The notes under the pieces are model-generated. The model was not told where the DNA came from. It was given only the letters and a program-made list of their open reading frames with translations, and made no database searches. The position numbers were made by a program, and so were the translations under genes. From a virus (Duplodnaviria > Heunggongvirae > Uroviricota > Caudoviricetes), in IMG/VR virus record IMGVR_UViG_2648501437_000009: a stretch of 10,176 nt of DNA; one strand, written 5' to 3'. Every line of letters begins with the position of its first letter. Position 1 is the first letter of the stretch. Below, in pieces: positions 1 to 10,176 of the stretch.

Positions 1-24
1 TCGGCGAAGGTAAGTTGATGACTC

Positions 25-1443
25 ATGATGAACCCTGTTCCATGGCTCCAGATGACAAACATGATCTCATATCAGGGACTTGTTCGCACCTTCCCTAGTG
101 AACTTGCAAAACTGGAAAAGCTAAAGAATCAGTATTCAAAGGAAGAATATAATAATCTTATCGCTCAAATAAATGAGCGTTATAAAGATCCAAAGCAACC
201 AAAGGCGAAAGGTTATTCGGATGATGCTGCCCAACGAATGATTGATCATCTGAATCAACAGAATGCGTTACTAAGTTCACAAGCTGAATTGACCGTTAAA
301 TTAAGTTCCTCTGAACAGGAACTGGTTAAGTGGCGTCAGCAGATTGCCGACCTGGAGTCACGACCGTCATCGAAATTAACCCAGGATCAGAAATCGCTTC
401 TCTTACACCGGGAAGAAATAACCGCGTTGATGGAGAAAAATGTTGCGATTGAAAAAAATAACAGGCTAATCAAGGAATCCGCCGAAATAGCTGCATGGCG
501 TGATTCATTGCAGGCTTCGATTGATAATCGTCAACAGGGGTATGACATTCAGATTGCTGGTTATGGGGTTGGCGATAAAAATCAGCAACGCCAGCAGGAA
601 TTACTGCGGATTGAACGTGAATATAACAATCAGCGTCTGCAACTTGAACGTGACTATGCAGATAAATCCCGTGGAATGTCAAATCATGTTTTTCAGGAGA
701 AAATGCAGGCTCTGAATGATGCTCTGGAACGAGAAAAAGAAATTGTCAGCCAGATAAACGAGCAGCTCGATATTCAGGCAGGAGACTGGATTAGTGGTGC
801 CTCCCAGGGATTCAATAACTGGCTGGATGACACTAAGGATATCGGTGCGCAGATAAAATCAACCACGACTCAGATGTTTGGTGGGATGACCGATGCGCTA
901 GGTGATTTTGTCACGACAGGCAAGGCAAATTTTCGTTCTTTCGCGACTTCCGTGATTTCGGATCTTAGTCGAATAGCATTAAAGGCTTCAATTACTGGGA
1001 TTTTCGACAGCATTAGTAACAGTTCTTCCGGAGGGATTTTAGGAACTATCGGGAGTGCTATTAGTAAATTTATTCCGAATGCAAAGGGCGGTGTTTATGA
1101 GTCTCCGTCATTGAGCACGTATTCGAACGGTATTTATGATTCCCCGCAATTTTTTGCTTTTGCAAAAGGGGCTGGTGTTTTTGGTGAGGCTGGACCGGAA
1201 GCCATTATGCCATTAACACGAACTTCCGATGGTTCTCTTGGTGTCAGAGCTATTAATAGTAAAAGTGGTAATGGAGGCGGAGATATTACCTATGCCCCTG
1301 TATACCAAATCACTATTCAAAATGACGGCCAGAATGGAGAGATTGGCCCTCAGGCAATAAAAGCACTTATGGGGATGGTTGATCAGCGGGTGCAGGGCAA
1401 TCTGTTAAATATGCGACGTGATGGGGGAATGTTAAGTGGCTAA
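25..1443 (+). CDS. Tail tape measure protein, C-terminal ~470 codons (gpH-like); possibly truncated or disrupted at the 5' end
   Basis: ORF 25..1443. N-terminal half is charged, Q/E/K/R-rich and heptad-like (coiled-coil, typical of tape measure proteins); C-terminal half is Gly/Ser-rich, ending ...NDGQNGEIGPQAIKAL...MRRDGGMLSG, which resembles the lambda gpH C-terminus as I recall it. Sits immediately upstream of M-L-K-I-J. In-frame TGA TGA at 16..21 prevents upstream extension in this frame. Confidence 0.8.
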   Translation: MMNPVPWLQMTNMISYQGLVRTFPSELAKLEKLKNQYSKEEYNNLIAQINERYKDPKQPKAKGYSDDAAQRMIDHLNQQNALLSSQAELTVKLSSSEQELVKWRQQIADLESRPSSKLTQDQKSLLLHREEITALMEKNVAIEKNNRLIKESAEIAAWRDSLQASIDNRQQGYDIQIAGYGVGDKNQQRQQELLRIEREYNNQRLQLERDYADKSRGMSNHVFQEKMQALNDALEREKEIVSQINEQLDIQAGDWISGASQGFNNWLDDTKDIGAQIKSTTTQMFGGMTDALGDFVTTGKANFRSFATSVISDLSRIALKASITGIFDSISNSSSGGILGTIGSAISKFIPNAKGGVYESPSLSTYSNGIYDSPQFFAFAKGAGVFGEAGPEAIMPLTRTSDGSLGVRAINSKSGNGGGDITYAPVYQITIQNDGQNGEIGPQAIKALMGMVDQRVQGNLLNMRRDGGMLSG

Positions 1444-1774
1444 TACGGAAGAATTTCACTGGTTACCAGAGGATGGAATGAAAACAGAAAATAAACCATC
1501 GATAAAAACTGTAAGATTTGGCGATGGTTATGAGCAACGAAGTCCAAATGGACTTAATCATTCTCTGCGCGTTTTCACCTGTGATTTCAAAGTTGAGGCG
1601 AATGAACGTGATTCATTTGAAAAATTTTTAGCCCGGCATGAAGGCTATAAATCTTTTTTTTGGCGGCCGCCGGGTATTAACAGAAAAATCAGAGTGGTGT
1701 GTCGAACGTGGTCAGCGACAGAACATATCACCTATACCGATTTTTCGTGTCAGTTTGACGAAGTGGTGATCTGA
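1436..1774 (+). CDS. M: Tail tip protein M (minor tail protein M)
   Basis: ORF 1436..1774 (GTG start overlapping the upstream stop). A likelier start is the in-frame ATG at 1478, preceded by GAGGA at 1468..1472. Contains the VRFGDGYEQR and KSFFWRPP motifs matching the gpM family (recalled lambda M: VRFGDGYSQR, KSFLWTPP). About 100-110 aa, the expected size and position between the tape measure gene and L. Confidence 0.85.
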   Translation: MANTEEFHWLPEDGMKTENKPSIKTVRFGDGYEQRSPNGLNHSLRVFTCDFKVEANERDSFEKFLARHEGYKSFFWRPPGINRKIRVVCRTWSATEHITYTDFSCQFDEVVI

Positions 1775-2472
1775 TGCAGGACATACAACAGGAAACGCTG
1801 AATGAATGCATTCGTGCGGAGCAGTCGGCCAGCGTGGTGCTCTGGGAAATCGACCTGACCGAGGTAGGCGGGGATCGCTACTTTTTCTGCAATGAGCAGA
1901 ACGAAAAAGGAGAGTCTGTCACCTGGCAGAGTCGTCAGTATCAGGCCTATCCCATTCAGGGGAGTGGATTTGAGATGAACGGCAAAGGTGCCAGTGCAAG
2001 GCCAACGCTGAAAGTATCTAATCTACACGGCATGGTCACCGGGATGGTGGAGGATTTGCAGAGTCTGGTCGGCGGAACAGTGGTCCGGCGTAAGGTCTAC
2101 GCTCGTTTTCTGGATGCGGTGAACTTCATTAACGGAAACAGTGAAGCCGATCCGGAGCAGGAGGTGATCAGCCGCTGGTGCATCGAGCAGTGCAGCGAAC
2201 TGAACGCGGTTAGCGCGGCCTTTGTGCTGTCCACGCCGACGGAAACGGATGGTGCCGTTTTCCCGGGGCGTATCATGCTGGCTAATACCTGCACCTGGAC
2301 CTATCGCGGTGATGAGTGCGGTTATCACGGTCCGGCGGTCGCGGATGAATATGACCAGCCAACGTCCGATATCACGAAGGATAAATGCAGCAAATGCCTG
2401 AGTGGCTGTAAGTTTCGCAATAACGTCGGCAACTTTGGCGGCTTCCTTTCCATTAACAAACTTTCGCAGTGA
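1774..2472 (+). CDS. L: Tail tip assembly protein L (Fe-S cluster-binding)
   Basis: ORF 1774..2472, 232 aa. ATG overlaps the M stop (ATGA at 1772..1776). Protein MQDIQQETLNECIRAEQSASVVLWEIDL...CSKCLSGCKFRNNVGNFGGFLSINKLSQ appears near-identical to lambda gpL from memory, including the C-terminal cysteine cluster. Same length as lambda L. Confidence 0.95.
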   Translation: MQDIQQETLNECIRAEQSASVVLWEIDLTEVGGDRYFFCNEQNEKGESVTWQSRQYQAYPIQGSGFEMNGKGASARPTLKVSNLHGMVTGMVEDLQSLVGGTVVRRKVYARFLDAVNFINGNSEADPEQEVISRWCIEQCSELNAVSAAFVLSTPTETDGAVFPGRIMLANTCTWTYRGDECGYHGPAVADEYDQPTSDITKDKCSKCLSGCKFRNNVGNFGGFLSINKLSQ

Positions 2473-3221
2473 ATCCCATGACAGAGACAGAATCAGCGAT
2501 TCTGGCGCACGCCCGGCGATGTGCGCCAGCGGAGTCGTGCGGCTTCGTGGTGAGAACGCCGGAGGGAGAAAGATATTTTCCCTGCGTGAATATCTCCGGT
2601 GAGCCGGAGGCGTATTTCCGGATGTCGCCGGAGGACTGGCTGAGTGCAGAAATGCAGGGTGAGATTGTGGCGCTGGTGCACAGCCATCCCGGTGATCTGC
2701 CCTGGCTGAGTGAGGCCGACCGGCGACTGCAGGTGCAGAGTGATTTGCCGTGGTGGCTGGTCTGCCGGGGGGCGATTCATAAGTTCCGCTGTGTGCCGCA
2801 TCTCACCGGGCGGCGCTTTGAGCACGGGGTGACGGACTGTTACACGCTGTTCCGGGACGCTTACCATCTGGCGGGGATTGAGATGCCGGATTTTCATCGC
2901 GGGGATGACTGGTGGCGTAACGGTCAGAATCTCTATCTGGATAATCTGGAGGCCACGGGGCTGTATCAGGTGCCGTTGTCATCAGCACAACCGGGCGATG
3001 TGCTGTTGTGCTGTTTTGGTTCATCGGTGCCGAATCATGCCGCCATTTACTGTGGTGACGGCGAGCTGCTGCACCATATTCCTGAACAACTGAGCAAACG
3101 AGAGAGGTATACCGACAAATGGCAGCGACGCACACACTCCCTCTGGCGTCACCGGGCATGGCACGCATCTGCCTTTACGGGGATTTACAACGATTTGGCC
3201 GCCGCATCGACCTTCGAGTGA
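2469..3221 (+). CDS. K: Tail tip assembly protein K (JAMM/MPN-like plus NlpC/P60-like domains)
   Basis: ORF 2469..3221 (GTG overlapping the L stop; alternative ATG at 2478 giving MTETESAIL...). Contains a JAMM-type motif HSHPGDLPWLSEAD and a downstream Cys/His region (DCYTLF...HH) typical of NlpC/P60 papain-like folds, the architecture described for lambda gpK. The 3' end overlaps gene I by about 100 nt in a different frame. Confidence 0.88.
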   Translation: MNPMTETESAILAHARRCAPAESCGFVVRTPEGERYFPCVNISGEPEAYFRMSPEDWLSAEMQGEIVALVHSHPGDLPWLSEADRRLQVQSDLPWWLVCRGAIHKFRCVPHLTGRRFEHGVTDCYTLFRDAYHLAGIEMPDFHRGDDWWRNGQNLYLDNLEATGLYQVPLSSAQPGDVLLCCFGSSVPNHAAIYCGDGELLHHIPEQLSKRERYTDKWQRRTHSLWRHRAWHASAFTGIYNDLAAASTFE

Positions 3222-3760
3222 AAACGGGGTCCGAAGCCATCCGGGCGCTGGCCATGCAGATCCCGGCATTTCGTCAGAAACTGAGCGACGGCTGGTACCA
3301 GGTACGCATTGCCGGGCGTGATGCAGGTGAAACCGAATTGTCTGCCCGTCTTAATGAGCCGCTGGAAAATGGTGCCGTGATCCATATCGTGCCGCGTCTG
3401 GCAGGAGCCAAAAGTGGCGGTGTGTTTCAGGCTGTGCTGGGGGCGGCTGTTATGGCGGTTGCTATATGGATGCCGGGGGTAGGAATTATGGCGAGTAATC
3501 TGCTGTTTTCTCTCGGTGCCAGTATGACGCTTGGCGGTGTTGCACAGATGCTGGCCCCTAAACCCAAAACCCCCCGCACACAGACAACGGATAACGGCAA
3601 ACAGAATACCTATTTTTCTTCACTGGATAACATGGTTGCCCAGGGCAATGTTCTGCCGGTTCTGTACGGTGAAATGCGCGTGGGGTCACGCGTGGTTTCT
3701 CAGGAGATCAGCACGGCAGACGAAGGGGATGGTGGTCAGGTTGTGGTGATTGGTCGCTGA
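3119..3760 (+). CDS. I: Tail tip assembly protein I
   Basis: ORF 3119..3760, 213 aa. MAATHTLPLASPGMARICLYGDLQRFGRRIDLRVKTG... followed by a hydrophobic Gly/Ala-rich segment and C-terminal ...NVLPVLYGEMRVGSRVVSQEISTADEGDGGQVVVIGR; matches the gpI family. Positioned between K and J. Confidence 0.9.
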   Translation: MAATHTLPLASPGMARICLYGDLQRFGRRIDLRVKTGSEAIRALAMQIPAFRQKLSDGWYQVRIAGRDAGETELSARLNEPLENGAVIHIVPRLAGAKSGGVFQAVLGAAVMAVAIWMPGVGIMASNLLFSLGASMTLGGVAQMLAPKPKTPRTQTTDNGKQNTYFSSLDNMVAQGNVLPVLYGEMRVGSRVVSQEISTADEGDGGQVVVIGR

Positions 3761-3778
3761 TACAAAATGTTTTATGTG

Positions 3779-3798
3779 AAACCGCCTCCGGGCGGTTT
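3779..3798 (+). promoter_or_regulatory. Perfect 8-bp stem / 4-nt loop hairpin in the I-J intergenic gap (possible weak terminator, attenuator or RNA stability element)
   Basis: AAACCGCC (3779..3786) - TCCG - GGCGGTTT (3791..3798) are exact reverse complements; followed by TATCGTTTAT (T-rich but interrupted), then GGAG at 3809..3812 and the J ATG at 3821. Confidence 0.4.
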
Positions 3799-3820
3799 TA
3801 TCGTTTATGGAGCATGACGA

Positions 3821-4798
3821 ATGGGTAAAGGCAGCAGTAAGGGGCATACCCCGCGCGAAGCGAAGGACAACCTGAAGTCCACGCAGCTGCTGAGTGTGAT
3901 CGATGCCATCAGCGAAGGGCCGGTTGAAGGTCCGGTGGATGGATTAAAAAGCGTGCTGCTGAACAGTACGCCGGTGCTGGACAGTGAGGGGAATACCAAT
4001 ATATCCGGCGTCACGGTGGTGTTCCGGGCAGGTGAGCAGGAGCAGACACCGCCGGAGGGATTTGAATCCTCCGGCTCCGAGACGGTGCTGGGTACGGAAG
4101 TGAAATATGACACGCCGATAACCCGGACCATCACGTCGGCAAACATTGACCGTCTGCGCCTGACCTTCGGTGTGCAGGCACTGGTGGAAACCACCTCAAA
4201 GGGGGACAGGAATCCGTCGGAAGTCCGCCTGCTGGTTCAGATACAGCGTAATGGTGGCTGGGTGACGGAAAAAGACATCACCATTAAGGGCAAAACCACC
4301 TCGCAGTATCTGGCCTCGGTGGTGGTGGATAACCTGCCGCCGCGCCCGTTTAATATCCGGATGCGCAGAATGACGCCGGACAGCACCACAGACCAGCTGC
4401 AGAACAAAACGCTCTGGTCGTCATACACCGAAATCATCGATGTGAAACAGGGCTACCCGAACACGGCACTGGTCGGCGTACAGGTGGATTCGGAGCAGTT
4501 CGGCAGCCAGCAGGTGAGCCGTAATTATCATCTGCGCGGACGCATTCTGCAGGTGCCGTCGAACTACAACCCGCAAAAACGGCACATACAGCGGTATCTG
4601 GGACGGAACGTTAAAACCAGCATACAGCAACAACACGGCCTGGTGTCTGTGGGATATGCTGACCCACCCGCGCTACGGCATGGGGAAACGTCTTGGTGCA
4701 GCGGATGTGGACAAATGGGCGCTGTATGTCATCGGCCAGCACTGCGACCAGTCGGTGCCGGACGGCTCTGGCGGCACGGAGCCGCGCATCACCTGTAA
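3821..4798 (+). CDS. J: J fragment 1 (N-terminal); J-like sequence ends near 4576, rest of the ORF is out-of-frame read-through
   Basis: ORF 3821..4798. After ...LQVPSNYNPQ the translation (KRHIQRYLGRNVKTSIQQQH...) loses J-like character while the +1 frame continues J. Confidence 0.6.
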   Translation: MGKGSSKGHTPREAKDNLKSTQLLSVIDAISEGPVEGPVDGLKSVLLNSTPVLDSEGNTNISGVTVVFRAGEQEQTPPEGFESSGSETVLGTEVKYDTPITRTITSANIDRLRLTFGVQALVETTSKGDRNPSEVRLLVQIQRNGGWVTEKDITIKGKTTSQYLASVVVDNLPPRPFNIRMRRMTPDSTTDQLQNKTLWSSYTEIIDVKQGYPNTALVGVQVDSEQFGSQQVSRNYHLRGRILQVPSNYNPQKRHIQRYLGRNVKTSIQQQHGLVSVGYADPPALRHGETSWCSGCGQMGAVCHRPALRPVGAGRLWRHGAAHHL

Positions 4799-5474
4799 TG
4801 CGTACCTGACCACACAGCGCAAGGCGTGGGATGTGCTCAGTGATTTCTGCTCGGCGATGCGCTGTATGCCGGTATGGAACGGGCAGACGCTGACGTTCGT
4901 GCAGGACCGACCGTCGGATAAGGTGTGGACCTATAACCGCAGTAATGTGGTGATGCCGGATGATGGCGCGCCGTTCCGCTACAGCTTCAGCGCCCTGAAA
5001 GACCGCCATAATGCCGTTGAGGTGAACTGGATTGACCCGAATAACGGCTGGGAGACGGCGACAGAGCTTGTGGAGGATACGCAGGCCATTGCCCGTTACG
5101 GTCGTAACGTCACGAAGATGGATGCCTTTGGCTGTACCAGCCGGGGGCAGGCACACCGCGCCGGGCTGTGGCTGATTAAAACAGAACTGCTGGAAACGCA
5201 GACCGTGGACTTCAGCGTGGGTGCCGAAGGGCTTCGCCATGTACCGGGCGATGTCATTGAAATCTGTGATGATGACTATGCCGGTATCAGCACCGGCGGG
5301 CGCGTGCTGGCGGTAAACAGCCAGACCCGGACGCTGACGCTCGACCGTGAAATCACGCTGCCATCTTCCGGCACCACGCTGATAAGCCTGGTTGACGGGA
5401 AGTGGCAATCCGATCAGCGTGGAGGTTCAGTCCGTCACCGACGGCGTGAAGGTGAAAGTGAGCCGTGTTCCTGA
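4656..5474 (+). CDS. J: J fragment 2 (central); J-like reading frame actually begins near 4581 and ends near 5399
   Basis: ORF 4656..5474 from first ATG ([28 protein letters not shown]...). The same frame is open and J-like upstream from about 4581 (GTYSGIWDGTLKPAYSNNTAWCLWD). After ...LISLVDG the tail ([24 protein letters not shown]) is out-of-frame read-through. Confidence 0.6.
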
Positions 5475-7302
5475 CGGCGTTGCTGAATACAGCGTGTGGG
5501 GGCTGAAGCTGCCGACGTTGCGCCAGCGCCTGTTCCGCTGCGTGAGTATCCGTGAGAACGACGACGGCACGTATGCCATCACCGCCGTGCAGCATGTGCC
5601 GGAAAAAGAGGCCATCGTGGATAACGGGGCGCACTTTGACGGCGACCAGAGCGGCACGGTGAATGGTGTCACGCCGCCAGCGGTGCAGCACCTGACCGCA
5701 GAAGTCACCGCAGACAGCGGGGAATATCAGGTGCTGGCGCGCTGGGACACGCCGAAGGTGGTGAAGGGCGTGAGCTTCATGCTTCGCCTGACCGTGGCAG
5801 CGGACGACGGCAGTGAGCGGCTGGTCAGCACGGCCCGGACGACGGAAACCACATACCGCTTCACGCAACTGGCGCTGGGGAACTACAGGCTGACAGTCCG
5901 GGCGGTAAATGCGTGGGGGCAGCAGGGCGATCCGGCGTCGGTATCGTTCCGGATTGCCGCACCGGCAGCACCGTCGCGGATTGAGCTGACGCCGGGCTAT
6001 TTTCAGATAACCGCAACGCCGCATCTTGCCGTTTATGATCCGACGGTACAGTTTGAGTTCTGGTTCTCGGAAAAGCGGATTACCGATATCAGGCAGGTTG
6101 AAACCACAGCCCGCTATCTTGGTACGGCGCTGTACTGGATAGCTGCCAGTATCAATATCAGGCCGGGCCATGATTATTATTTTTATATCCGCAGTGTGAA
6201 TACCGTTGGCAAATCGGCATTCGTGGAGGCTGTTGGTCAGCCGAGTGATGATGCATCCGGTTATCTGGATTTTTTCAAAGGCGAGATAGGGAAAACCCAT
6301 CTGGCTCATGAGCTGTGGACGCAGATTGATAACGGTCAGCTTGCGCCTGACCTGGCTGAAATCAGGACGTCCATTACGGATGTCAGCAATGAAATCACGC
6401 AGACCGTCAATAAGAAACTGGAAGACCAGAGTGCGGCAATTCAGCAGATACAGAAGGTTCAGGTTGATACAAATAATAACCTGAACAGCATGTGGGCTGT
6501 GAAGCTGCAGCAGATGCAGGACGGACGCCTTTATATCGCGGGTATTGGTGCCGGTATTGAGAACACCCCTGACGGCATGCAGAGTCAGGTGCTGCTGGCG
6601 GCGGACAGGATTGCGATGATTAATCCTGCGAATGGCAACACAAAACCGATGTTTGTTGGTCAGGGCGATCAGATATTCATGAACGAAGTGTTCCTGAAAT
6701 ATCTGACGGCTCCCACCATTACCAGCGGCGGTAATCCTCCGACATTTTCCCTGACACCGGACGGGCGGCTGACGGCGAAAAATGCCGATATCAGCGGTAA
6801 CGTGAATGCGAACTCCGGGACGCTCAATAATGTCACGATTAACCAGAACTGTCGGATTATGGGAAAGCTGTCTGTCAACCAGATTGAAGGCGATATTGTC
6901 AAAACAGTGGGTAAGGCTTTCCCGCGGGACTCCCGGGCACCGGAGCGGTGGCCATCAGGGACCATTACCGTCAGGATTTATGACGATCAGCCGTTTGACC
7001 GGCAGATTGTTATTCCGGCGGTGGCATTCAGCGGCGCTAAACATGAGAGAGAGCATACTGATATTTACTCCTCATGCCGTCTGATAGTGCGGAAAAACGG
7101 TGCTGAAATTTATAACCGTACCGCGCTGGATAATACGCTGATTTACAGTGGCGTTATTGATATGCCTGCCGGTCACGGTCACATGACGCTGGAGTTTTCG
7201 GTATCAGCATGGCTGGTGAATGACTGGTATCCCACAGCAAGTATCAGCGATTTGCTGGTTGTGGTGATGAAGAAAGCCACCGCAGGCATCAGTATCAGTT
7301 GA
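5392..7302 (+). CDS. J: J fragment 3 (C-terminal, includes the presumed receptor-binding region)
   Basis: ORF 5392..7302 (TTG at 5392 is an ORF-caller start; J frame resumes at about 5401 with [26 protein letters not shown]). 636 codons uninterrupted to the stop at 7300..7302. Confidence 0.65.
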
Positions 7303-7321
7303 ATTTTATAACCCAAATACG

Positions 7322-7346
7322 GGCGCCAGAAATGGCGCCTTTTTTA
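7322..7346 (+). terminator. Rho-independent terminator downstream of J
   Basis: GGCGCCA (7322..7328) - GAAA loop - TGGCGCC (7333..7339), a perfect 7-bp GC-rich stem with a GNRA-type tetraloop, followed immediately by TTTTTTATT (7340..7348). Lies 20 nt after the J stop. Confidence 0.8.
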
Positions 7347-7369
7347 TTGCAGAAAAGCGAGAGGTAATT

Positions 7370-7969
7370 ATGCGTAAATTATGTGCTGTTATTCTGTCTG
7401 CAGTAGTCTGGCTGGTCGCCGCTGGTACGCCAGCGAGTGCAGCAGAGCATCAGTCCACACTAAGCGCCGGGTATCTTCAGACCCATACTGATATGCCAGG
7501 CAGCGATGACCTGAAGGGCATTAACGTGAAATACCGTTATGAGTTTACGGACACGCTGGGGCTGATTACGTCATTCAGTTATGCCAATGCTGAAGATGAG
7601 CAAAAAACGCATTACAGCGATACCCGCTGGCATGAAGATTCCGTGCGTAACCGCTGGTTCAGCGTGATGGCGGGGCCGTCTGTGCGCGTGAATGAATGGT
7701 TCAGCGCGTATGCGATGGCGGGTATGGCTTACAGCCGTGTGTCGACTTTCTCCGGGGATTATCTGCACGTAACCGACAACAAGGGGAAAACGCACGATGT
7801 GCTGACCGGAAGTGATGACGGTCGCCACAGCAACACGTCTCTGGCGTGGGGAGCTGGCGTGCAGTTTAACCCGACCGAATCCGTGGCCATTGATATTGCT
7901 TATGAAGGTTCCGGCAGTGGCGACTGGCGTACTGACGGTTTCATCGTGGGTGTCGGTTATAAATTCTGA
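7370..7969 (+). CDS. lom: Lom outer-membrane protein (Ail/Lom/PagC/OmpX family beta-barrel); lysogenic-conversion moron
   Basis: ORF 7370..7969, 199 aa. RBS GAGAGG at about 7357..7362. N-terminal signal peptide MRKLCAVILSAVVWLVAAGTPASA-AEH. C-terminus ...VAIDIAYEGSGSGDWRTDGFIVGVGYKF ends in aromatic F, typical of OM beta-barrels, and matches the lambda Lom C-terminus as I recall it. Position after J matches lambda. Confidence 0.9.
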   Translation: MRKLCAVILSAVVWLVAAGTPASAAEHQSTLSAGYLQTHTDMPGSDDLKGINVKYRYEFTDTLGLITSFSYANAEDEQKTHYSDTRWHEDSVRNRWFSVMAGPSVRVNEWFSAYAMAGMAYSRVSTFSGDYLHVTDNKGKTHDVLTGSDDGRHSNTSLAWGAGVQFNPTESVAIDIAYEGSGSGDWRTDGFIVGVGYKF

Positions 7970-7995
7970 TTAGCCAGGTAACACAGTGTTATGGC

Positions 7996-8022
7996 AGCCC
8001 GCAGATTCTGGCGGGCTTTTTT
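7996..8022 (+). terminator. Rho-independent terminator downstream of lom
   Basis: AGCCCGC (7996..8002) - 8-nt loop - GCGGGCT (8011..8017), followed by a T-run (8017..8022). Lies 27 nt after the lom stop and 12 nt before the stf ATG. Confidence 0.75.
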
Positions 8023-8033
8023 GTGGGGTGAAT

Positions 8034-10176
8034 ATGGCAGTAAAGATTTCAGGTGTACTGAAAGACGGTGCAGGTAAACCGATACAGAACTGCACAATCC
8101 AGCTGAAAGCAAAACGTAACAGCACCACGGTGGTGGTGAACACGGTGGCCTCAGAAAATCCGGATGAAGCCGGGCGTTACAGCATGGACGTTGAGTACGG
8201 TCAGTACAGCGTTATTCTGTTGGTGGAGGGATTCCCGCCGTCACATGCCGGGACCATCACCGTGTATGAAGACTCCCAACCCGGTACGCTGAATGATTTT
8301 CTTGGTGCCATGACGGAGGATGATGCCCGTCCGGAGGCACTGCGCCGTTTTGAACTGATGGTGGAAGAGGTGGCGCGTAACGCGTCCGCAGTGGCACAGA
8401 ACACGGCAGCCGCGAAGAAGTCAGCCAGCGATGCCGGCACATCAGCCCGTGAGGCGGCAACTCATGCAACCGATGCTGCAGGCTCAGCACGTGCCGCCAG
8501 CACGTCAGCCGGACAGGCCGCGTCGTCGGCTCAGTCAGCATCTTCCAGCGCAGGAACGGCATCAACAAAGGCCACTGAAGCATCAAAAAGTGCTGCCGCT
8601 GCAGAGTCTTCAAAAAGCGCGGCTGCCACCAGTGCCGGTGCCGCGTCAACAAGTGCCGGGCAGGCCTCAGCCAGTGCCACCGCCGCCGGAAAATCGGCAG
8701 AAAGCGCCGCCTCGTCCGCTTCAACAGCCACAACGAAGGCTGGCGAAGCCACTGAACAGGCCAGCGCAGCAGCGAGGTCTGCTTCCGCAGCGAAGACATC
8801 TGAGACGAATGCGAAAGCGTCGGAAACCCGTGCAGAATCCTCAAAAACGGCAGCCGCATCGTCCGCCAGTTCGGCGGCGTCATCGGCATCATCTGCGTCT
8901 GCTTCAAAAGATGAGGCGACCAGACAGGCGTCAGCAGCAAAGGGCAGCGCCACGACGGCATCCACGAAGGCGACAGAGGCAGCTGGCAGTGCGACGGCGG
9001 CAGCTCAGAGCAAAAGTACGGCGGAATCCGCGGCAACGCGCGCCGAGACAGCGGCAAAACGGGCAGAGGATATTGCATCCGCCGTGGCGCTTGAGGATGC
9101 AAGTACGACGAAAAAGGGGATAGTACAGCTCAGCAGTGCGACCAACAGCACTTCCGAGTCACTGGCGGCAACGCCAAAGGCAGTAAAAGCAGCCAATGAC
9201 AATGCTGAGAAACGTCTGCAGAAAGATCAGAACGGTGCGGATATCCCTGGCAAAGACACCTTTACGAAAAATATTGGTGCCTGCCGTGCCTTCGGTGGGT
9301 CAGTAAGCACAACAACAGGAAACTGGACGACTGCACAGTTTATCGAGTGGCTGGATTCTCAGGGAGCATTTAACCATCCATACTGGATGTGCAAGGGTTC
9401 CTGGTCTTATGGCAATAATAAAATCATTACTGATACTGGCTGCGGTAATATTCATCTCGCCGGAGCTGTCATTGAAGTAATGGGGATAAAGTCAGCGATG
9501 ACGATCCGCATTACCACACCGACCACCTCCACTGGTGGTGGAACAACTAACGCCCAGTTTACCTATATTAATCACGGAACAGATTATTCACCTGGCTGGC
9601 GAAGGGACTATAACTCCAGAAATAAGCCAACGGCATCAGAGATCGGGGCGTTACCGTCAGGTGGAACAGCAGTATCATCAGTTAATTTGTCTTCAAAAGG
9701 TCGGGTAACCGCGCTGACAGACAATACGCAGGGGGCAACAGGTCTTGAGTTATACGAGGTGTATAACAACGGATATCCAACAGCGTATGGAAATATCATT
9801 CACCTGAAAGGGATGACAGCCGTTGGCGAAGGTGAGTTACTCATCGGCTGGAGTGGTACAAGCGGTGCTCATGCTCCGGCATTTATTCGTTCACGACGGG
9901 ATACGACCGACGCAAACTGGTCGCCGTGGGCGCAGCTTTACACCTCGGCTCATCCTCCTGCAGAGTTTTATCCAGTCGGTGCACCAATCCCGTGGCCATC
10001 AGATACCGTTCCGTCTGGTTATGCCCTGATGCAGGGGCAGACTTTTGACAAATCTGCTTACCCGAAACTTGCAGTTGCTTATCCGTCAGGCGTTATTCCT
10101 GATATGCGTGGCTGGACGATTAAGGGCAAGCCCGGCAGTGGTCGTGCCGTATTGTCTCAGGAACAGGACGGCATTA
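8034..10176 (+). CDS. stf: Side tail fibre protein Stf (partial, 3' end beyond window)
   Basis: ATG at 8034 with GGGGTG upstream. I translated the frame by hand: open to the window end with no stop (missing from the ORF track because there is no stop in-window). N-terminus [60 protein letters not shown] matches the lambda Stf N-terminus from memory. Followed by a long Ala/Ser-rich tract, the [26 protein letters not shown] motif, and a distal [37 protein letters not shown] motif typical of enterobacterial phage tail-fibre C-terminal regions. Confidence 0.9.
8380..9080 (+). repeat. Degenerate Ala/Ser/Thr-rich low-complexity repeat tract within stf (fibre shaft)
   Basis: About 230 codons dominated by A, S, T, K, E in recurring short units (e.g. 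SAxSAxxASxSA, [21 protein letters not shown]). GC-rich and stop-poor in several frames on both strands, which generates the long overlapping shadow ORFs 8257..9102(-), 8531..8965(-) and 8431..9123(+). Confidence 0.6.

Follow-up and report, generated by a model that had tools for sequence, protein, structure and literature searches.

The tail-tip host-specificity protein of phage lambda, gpJ (NP_040600), consists of 1132 amino acids encoded in a single ORF. A functional TipJ/gpJ protein of the lambda type is encoded by a single continuous ORF of about 1130-1160 codons, carries a series of six Pfam families in their native order, and its gene is located between I and lom, downstream of H-M-L-K. 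In prophages that undergo domestication and decay, an IS insertion combined with frameshifts is the usual pattern. For the element IS5, the target consensus is YTAR. An Escherichia coli prophage with such an insertion is found in strain ECSC054 (NZ_AP024112.1, 2.84-2.86 Mb), where the tape-measure gene H is annotated as a split pseudogene with its two halves around IS5.

The window analyzed here, by which the whole stretch of 10,176 nt is meant, is the complete contig JHSO01000113.1 of the draft assembly GCA_001266005.1 and covers the tail-tip region of a prophage resembling lambda. Its gene order H-M-L-K-I-J-lom-stf is that of lambda, of phage PhiR55_1, and of a prophage in E. coli MB50, and all close relatives of the window were Escherichia sequences. 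In a set of 5,426 complete E. coli genomes, the closest match to the whole window had only 95.7% identity; the exact prophage is therefore absent from this collection. The features of the window are compiled in the table. M, L, K, and I have the same lengths as their MB50 counterparts. Inside stf, an ORF of 230 amino acids with an ATG start was found in an alternative frame (8431-9123, plus strand), which is probably a chance ORF within GC-rich repetitive fibre sequence. Three clustered private substitutions were seen at 7994-8005, in the lom-stf intergenic stretch, at the start of stf or immediately before it.

Table. Features of the window with their positions, strands, and characteristics
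Feature	Position	Strand	Remarks
IS5 end, terminal 94 nt	1-94	-	contains the start codon of the transposase (minus strand); contig breaks within the IS5 repeat
CTAG	95-98		adjoins the IS5 end; read from the sequence
H, 3' remnant	95-1443	+	severed from the 5' part by IS5
M	1436-1774	+	intact; called gene and Pfam family
L	1774-2472	+	intact; called gene and Pfam family
K	2478-3221	+	intact; called gene and Pfam family
I	3158-3760	+	intact; called gene and Pfam family
J, tail-tip host-specificity gene	3821-7302	+	pseudogene, three frames, two +1 insertions
J segment 1, native frame	3821-4584	+	FNIII-A_GpJ domain; shifted frame then stops at 4796-4798
First +1 insertion	4585	+	GGCA-ATAC -> GGCACATAC; inside the patch 4490-4618
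J segment 2, second frame	4587-5399	+	Phage-tail_3 domain; ends ...LISLVDG
Second +1 insertion, within GGG run	5397-5399	+	homologues have GG here (GAC GGA AGT)
J segment 3, third frame	5401-7302	+	633 open codons; native stop 7300-7302
Private substitution G -> A	5413	+	V>I after repair of the frame; 14-16 nt past the insertion
Premature stop of the second frame	5472-5474	+	24 out-of-frame codons past the insertion
lom	7370-7969	+	intact
stf, side tail fibre gene	7986-10176	+	open up to the contig end

The left end of the window is formed by IS5, which is fused to the middle of H. Positions 1-100 were identical in 100 of 100 nt to annotated IS5 copies of complete E. coli genomes. The sequence that ends at position 94, ...GGGACTTGTTCGCACCTTCC, is presumably the IS5 terminal repeat, and the adjoining CTAG fits the target consensus. 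Both an IS5-identical terminus and a YTAR target were found at the junction, and a single IS5 end is present on the contig. The remnant of H, to which the Pfam families TMP_4 and Tape_meas_lam_C were assigned in the called gene, contains in-frame stop codons within its first 24 nt. The junction between IS5 and H is identical (100 of 100 nt) in the ECSC054 prophage, which also has the same gene order and is about 99% identical over the first 2 kb. Beyond 2 kb, the two prophages are related in mosaic blocks of about 85-97% identity. They differ in J, which is an intact ORF of 3480 nt in ECSC054. Because H is split by IS5, no tail would be assembled from the prophage in the window, independently of the state of J.

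J of the window is 3482 nt long, and intact homologues have 3480 nt. When positions 3821-7302 were aligned globally with the J gene of PhiR55_1 (3480 nt), the only gaps were the two at 4585 and 5397, and there were 117 substitutions. The same two isolated gaps were obtained against MB50 and ECSC054, where the remaining gaps form compensated clusters within divergent patches. Such an alignment to intact homologues had been proposed in an earlier note on this DNA, which had been made from the letters of the sequence; no isolated gap besides these two was detected, and none of the three aligned J genes has the extra base at 5397. After removal of both extra bases, a reading frame of 3480 nt and 1159 amino acids with zero internal stops is obtained. 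The repaired protein is 98.2% identical to the PhiR55_1 protein and 82.6% identical to lambda gpJ, and among intact J genes, those of other phages and prophages, for example PhiR55_1, are closer to it than lambda J. With lambda, J of the window shares the gene order, the Pfam domain series, and the motif LISLVDGSGNP; it differs in its repaired length and in the two +1 insertions. All six Pfam families scored above their curated cut-offs and follow one another in native order across the three frame segments, the third of which carries Ig_J, Ig_J_second, Phage_Tail_Tip, and the receptor-binding Ig_GpJ_C. Since the expected domains appear in this order, the frame pattern is not due to chance. The gene also has the expected position between I and lom, downstream of H-M-L-K. 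However, the single uninterrupted ORF of a functional TipJ/gpJ gene is lacking in the window. Because J is split and the shifts behind its first and second segments lead into premature stops (4796-4798 and 5472-5474), it is a pseudogene and not a functional member of the family. Gene callers divided the broken gene into three proteins of 325, 239, and 627 amino acids (3821-4798, 4755-5474, and 5419-7302), and a public protein collection lists these three fragments like genuine products.

One other sequence, the locus L016 on the IMG/VR contig IMGVR_UViG_2648501437_000007, has the first frameshift as well. Positions 4490-4618 of the window are 100% identical to positions 1127-1255 of L016 including the extra base, and this patch of about 130 nt is common to L016 only. 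J of L016 is split into ORFs of 297 and 881 amino acids and does not contain the second insertion. L016 is 99.66% identical to another allele, L017, with nearly all of the differences falling in the patch that corresponds to 4490-4618. Judged from these sequences, the lesion-bearing patch seems to have moved between J alleles by short-tract recombination over about 130 nt. The occurrence of the first frameshift in the independent L016 assembly, on a different allele background, indicates that it is real and older. As L016 carries the first frameshift without the second one, the decay of J in this lineage is real and proceeded stepwise. The earlier note had considered two independent, very recent events, which does not agree with the age and distribution of the first lesion. 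The base added at this site is C, or G if measured against the rarer allele CGC ACG TAC. None of the complete E. coli genomes contained the first insertion; the best local identity was 95.1%, and every match was one base shorter than the query. Four matches to the pattern of the first site were obtained in GTDB representatives, in unrelated metagenome-assembled genomes and a Polaromonas genome, and were rejected as chance matches of 21-30 nt. A Logan contig protein of 208 amino acids (P0017), the sole cluster-mate of the first J fragment, does not carry the same lesion. Its sequence instead shows another frameshift, possibly a read-level artefact, a few codons past the first site, reading ...YSGIWDGTFKP before it goes out of frame.

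The second frameshift falls in the linker that joins the Phage-tail_3 domain to the first Ig-like domain. Positions 5394-5406 read GACGGGAAGTGGC, that is GAC GGG AAG TGG C, and the middle frame continues through ...ISLVDG, with GGG at 5397-5399 as its last native codon, into 24 nonsense codons before the stop. In lambda, the DNA at this site is GAC GGA AGT GGC AAT and encodes LISLVDGSGNP. The site was compared in 77 homologous loci from IMG/VR and fetched records. The extra base was missing from all 77. About 50 of them read GGA AGT GG(C/T), and the others read GGG CAG GGG, GGA AAT GGC, GGA CAG GGG, or GGT NAG GGT; GGG AGT was found in 0 of the 77. The locally closest alleles, L016, L017, and L062, are of the GGA AGT type and differ from the window across 5316-5438 only at the extra base and at 5413. 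Because lambda, the roughly 50 homologues, and these closest alleles read GGA AGT, the sequences are most simply explained by an inserted G, which would have changed GG to GGG and GAC GGA AGT to GAC GGG AAG T.

The observation of the earlier note on this site held, and its interpretation is supported in part. It had proposed a single-base +1 insertion at 5394-5405 as a second frameshift in J, and the alignments to PhiR55_1, MB50, ECSC054, and the 77 loci confirm this insertion and show J to have two frameshifts in all. Without the extra base the junction reads LVDGSGNP, which the note had given for lambda and which is indeed the peptide of lambda, and the stretch of more than 600 open downstream codons that it had described amounts to 633, up to the native stop that ends at 7302. 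The identity of the base has to be revised: the extra base had been taken for an A, but lambda and about 50 of the 77 homologues have GGA AGT and none has GGG AGT, so that G is the simplest assignment. The assertion that the same base was inserted at both sites also fails, with C (or G) at the first site and most simply G at the second.

The second insertion was not found in any other sequence. None of the 2,259 complete E. coli records that matched the site contained it, the best of which had 96.9% local identity and all of which were one base shorter than the query, and it was likewise absent from the phage records and plasmids searched. An exact-pattern scan for the junction gave 0 matches in GTDB representatives and 0 in JGI metagenomes. 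The sole match to the pattern in IMG/VR, in locus L085, is a chance 19-mer with no other similarity to the window. In an exact look-up, each of the three J fragment proteins was on record from the window contig only. Since even fragment 1, whose form is determined by the confirmed first frameshift alone, is recorded only there, the J allele as a whole is rarely sampled. Uniqueness of the second insertion is therefore by itself no evidence of an error.

A private substitution accompanies the second insertion. Position 5413 is G in all 82 panel homologues and A in the window. The best E. coli matches to 5366-5430, at 96.9%, correspond to one gap plus one mismatch, and in the comparison with the panel loci this mismatch falls at 5413. 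Judged roughly by how densely private variants occur, the chance that a random private change falls this near to the insertion is about 4-5%. Further private substitutions in the last J segment were noted at 6309, 6867, and 6875 (Q>H, synonymous K, and A>V), the latter two in a locally divergent stretch where the alignment is uncertain. In total, 3 of the 4 private J substitutions downstream of the second site are nonsynonymous (V>I, Q>H, and A>V) and 1 of the 4 is synonymous. This ratio of 3:1 fits relaxed constraint, with n = 4 being too few to carry weight.

The reading that we consider probable is that the second insertion is a genuine, strain-specific secondary mutation in a J gene that was already dead and belongs to a defective lambda-like prophage on a chromosome of the Escherichia type. 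The assembled sequence is a matter of observation, and we infer from it that the extra base is physically present in the DNA and not an artefact of assembly. An error of assembly or consensus, in which the extra base does not exist in the DNA and arose for instance from a low-coverage stretch or from mixed reads of paralogous J genes, is possible but the less likely account. It could have been produced by mixing of GGG CAG GGG and GGA AGT alleles (with GGGCAGGGG paralogue reads), where a gapped consensus becomes one base too long; in fact, GACGGGAAGTGGC equals a merge of the common alleles GACGGGCAG-GGG and GACGG-AAGTGGC with both gap columns filled. E. coli genomes contain a median of 3 J copies, from which paralogue reads could enter a consensus, the source is a draft assembly of short contigs with this contig bounded by repeats, and no second copy of the insertion turned up in any of the collections searched. 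The second private change 14-16 nt away could belong to the same local patch of poor consensus. However, outside 5400-5413 the flanks are without signs of mixed alleles, and L016-type alleles match the window over 123 nt around the site. Over about 8.3 kb of aligned sequence there was no other isolated indel except the first frameshift, which is confirmed in L016. M, L, K, I, lom, and stf are free of isolated indels, and their lengths match those of homologues. All 36 homopolymer runs of at least 5 nt within 95-8383 were also free of indels, including T8 and A7. The clean neighbouring genes and homopolymers argue against an error-prone assembly. An artefact of homopolymer calling would concentrate indels in long runs and in many genes, a distribution that was not seen on this contig: of the two indels in J, one lies in a 2-mer and the other in a nonhomopolymer context, and an error of the flow or nanopore type is unlikely to strike only a 2-mer. 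The systematic base-calling error that the earlier note had considered is not supported by these observations, and a look through the other genes for single-A insertions, as it had suggested, yielded none within this contig. In addition, a dead prophage is expected to gather mutations of this kind.

Other explanations accept the extra base as real. An inserted A, or an extra base generated directly at a recombination junction misaligned by one base, appears unlikely. By these routes, a GGG CAG GGG-type sequence upstream would have been joined to a GGA AGT-type sequence downstream, giving GAC GGG AGT followed by insertion of an A, or GACGGG|AAGTGGC in one step. Among the closest alleles upstream of the site are some of the GGG-CAG type (such as L007, L023, L037, L038, and L074), which have 1-2 mismatches in 5200-5393 and none at 5315, 5366, or 5372, the window has GGA AGT-type bases at 5400-5408, and the first frameshift likewise lies in a micro-patch of hybrid appearance. 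On the other hand, the GGA AGT-type alleles L016, L017, and L062 are also without the mismatches at 5366 and 5372; as they match on both sides, a junction exactly at the second site is not needed. The GGG AGT intermediate is moreover present in no homologue. All three routes end in an identical sequence, which therefore does not distinguish them, and they differ in what they predict for relatives with an otherwise identical J: GACGGGAGTGGC if A was inserted, and GACGGAAGTGGC, with the frame intact, if G was inserted. A more general version of the junction idea draws on both lesions of J, which occur in short patches of clustered changes that resemble hybrids of alleles. At the first site, the local sequence CAA AAA CGG CAC ATA C resembles a hybrid of CAG ACG CGG CAA TAC and GAA AAA CGC ACG TAC (PQTRQYS with PEKRTYS at the protein level), and at the second site a hybrid of GGG CAG GGG and GGA AGT GGC. 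Short-patch homeologous recombination between the paralogous J genes of co-resident prophages, misaligned by one base, might accordingly be a recurrent way of inactivating mosaic tail genes, with the lesion then spreading by recombination as exemplified by the patch of the first site between the window and L016; we regard this as quite improbable. The possibility that full-length J is still made by programmed +1 ribosomal frameshifting or recoding is extremely remote. A P-site glycyl-tRNA on GGG could in principle re-pair with the overlapping GGA, and the downstream frame is fully open, but the shift is not conserved (0 of the 77 homologous loci, 0 of 2,259 E. coli records, and not in lambda). 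GGG is followed by AAG, a common codon, with no stop and no rare codon, and no Shine-Dalgarno-like stimulator was visible upstream of the site. Two separate shifts would need to be bypassed, and a functional tail is impossible with H broken by IS5. With the programmed +1 sites of the prfB type, the site in the window shares no more than a frame that could be restored by a +1 shift; unlike them, it is unconserved and has neither an in-frame stop, nor a hungry codon, nor an upstream stimulator. Internal promoters and terminators were also considered at the locus, and no signals were found.

If the second insertion is a genuine mutation, as we favor, it would be a +1 insertion of the replication-slippage type. 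The frame would be shifted after Gly-526 of the repaired protein of 1159 amino acids, and translation would end 24 codons further on. The C-terminal 633 residues would be lost, and with them both Ig-like domains as well as the domains of the tail-tip fibre and of receptor binding. Regarding the order of events, H probably acquired IS5 and J its first frameshift at the beginning, as these two lesions also occur in other genomes, and the strain-specific second insertion may have arisen later together with the G -> A change at 5413. Because J was already truncated by the shift at 4585 and H was split by IS5, the second insertion would have no functional consequence of its own and would be selectively neutral. 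The very recent pseudogenization of a working gene, which the earlier note had offered as one of two interpretations, does not apply to a J gene that was already dead in a prophage already disabled in H.

For annotation, J of this window is best recorded as one pseudogene and not as three proteins, and the prophage is best scored as defective. As a singleton frameshift in a draft assembly, the second insertion calls for confirmation at the level of reads. The transfer of the first lesion by recombination over about 130 nt shows on a small scale how lesions may move among the mosaic tail genes of prophages. A J pseudogene in a decaying lambdoid prophage is a well-known situation and nothing new in kind. 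The window differs from the defective (cryptic) lambdoid prophages of E. coli only in that the second J frameshift occurs in no other record searched. In all other respects it resembles them, with IS5 in the tape-measure gene, single-base frameshifts in a tail gene, and intact neighbouring genes.
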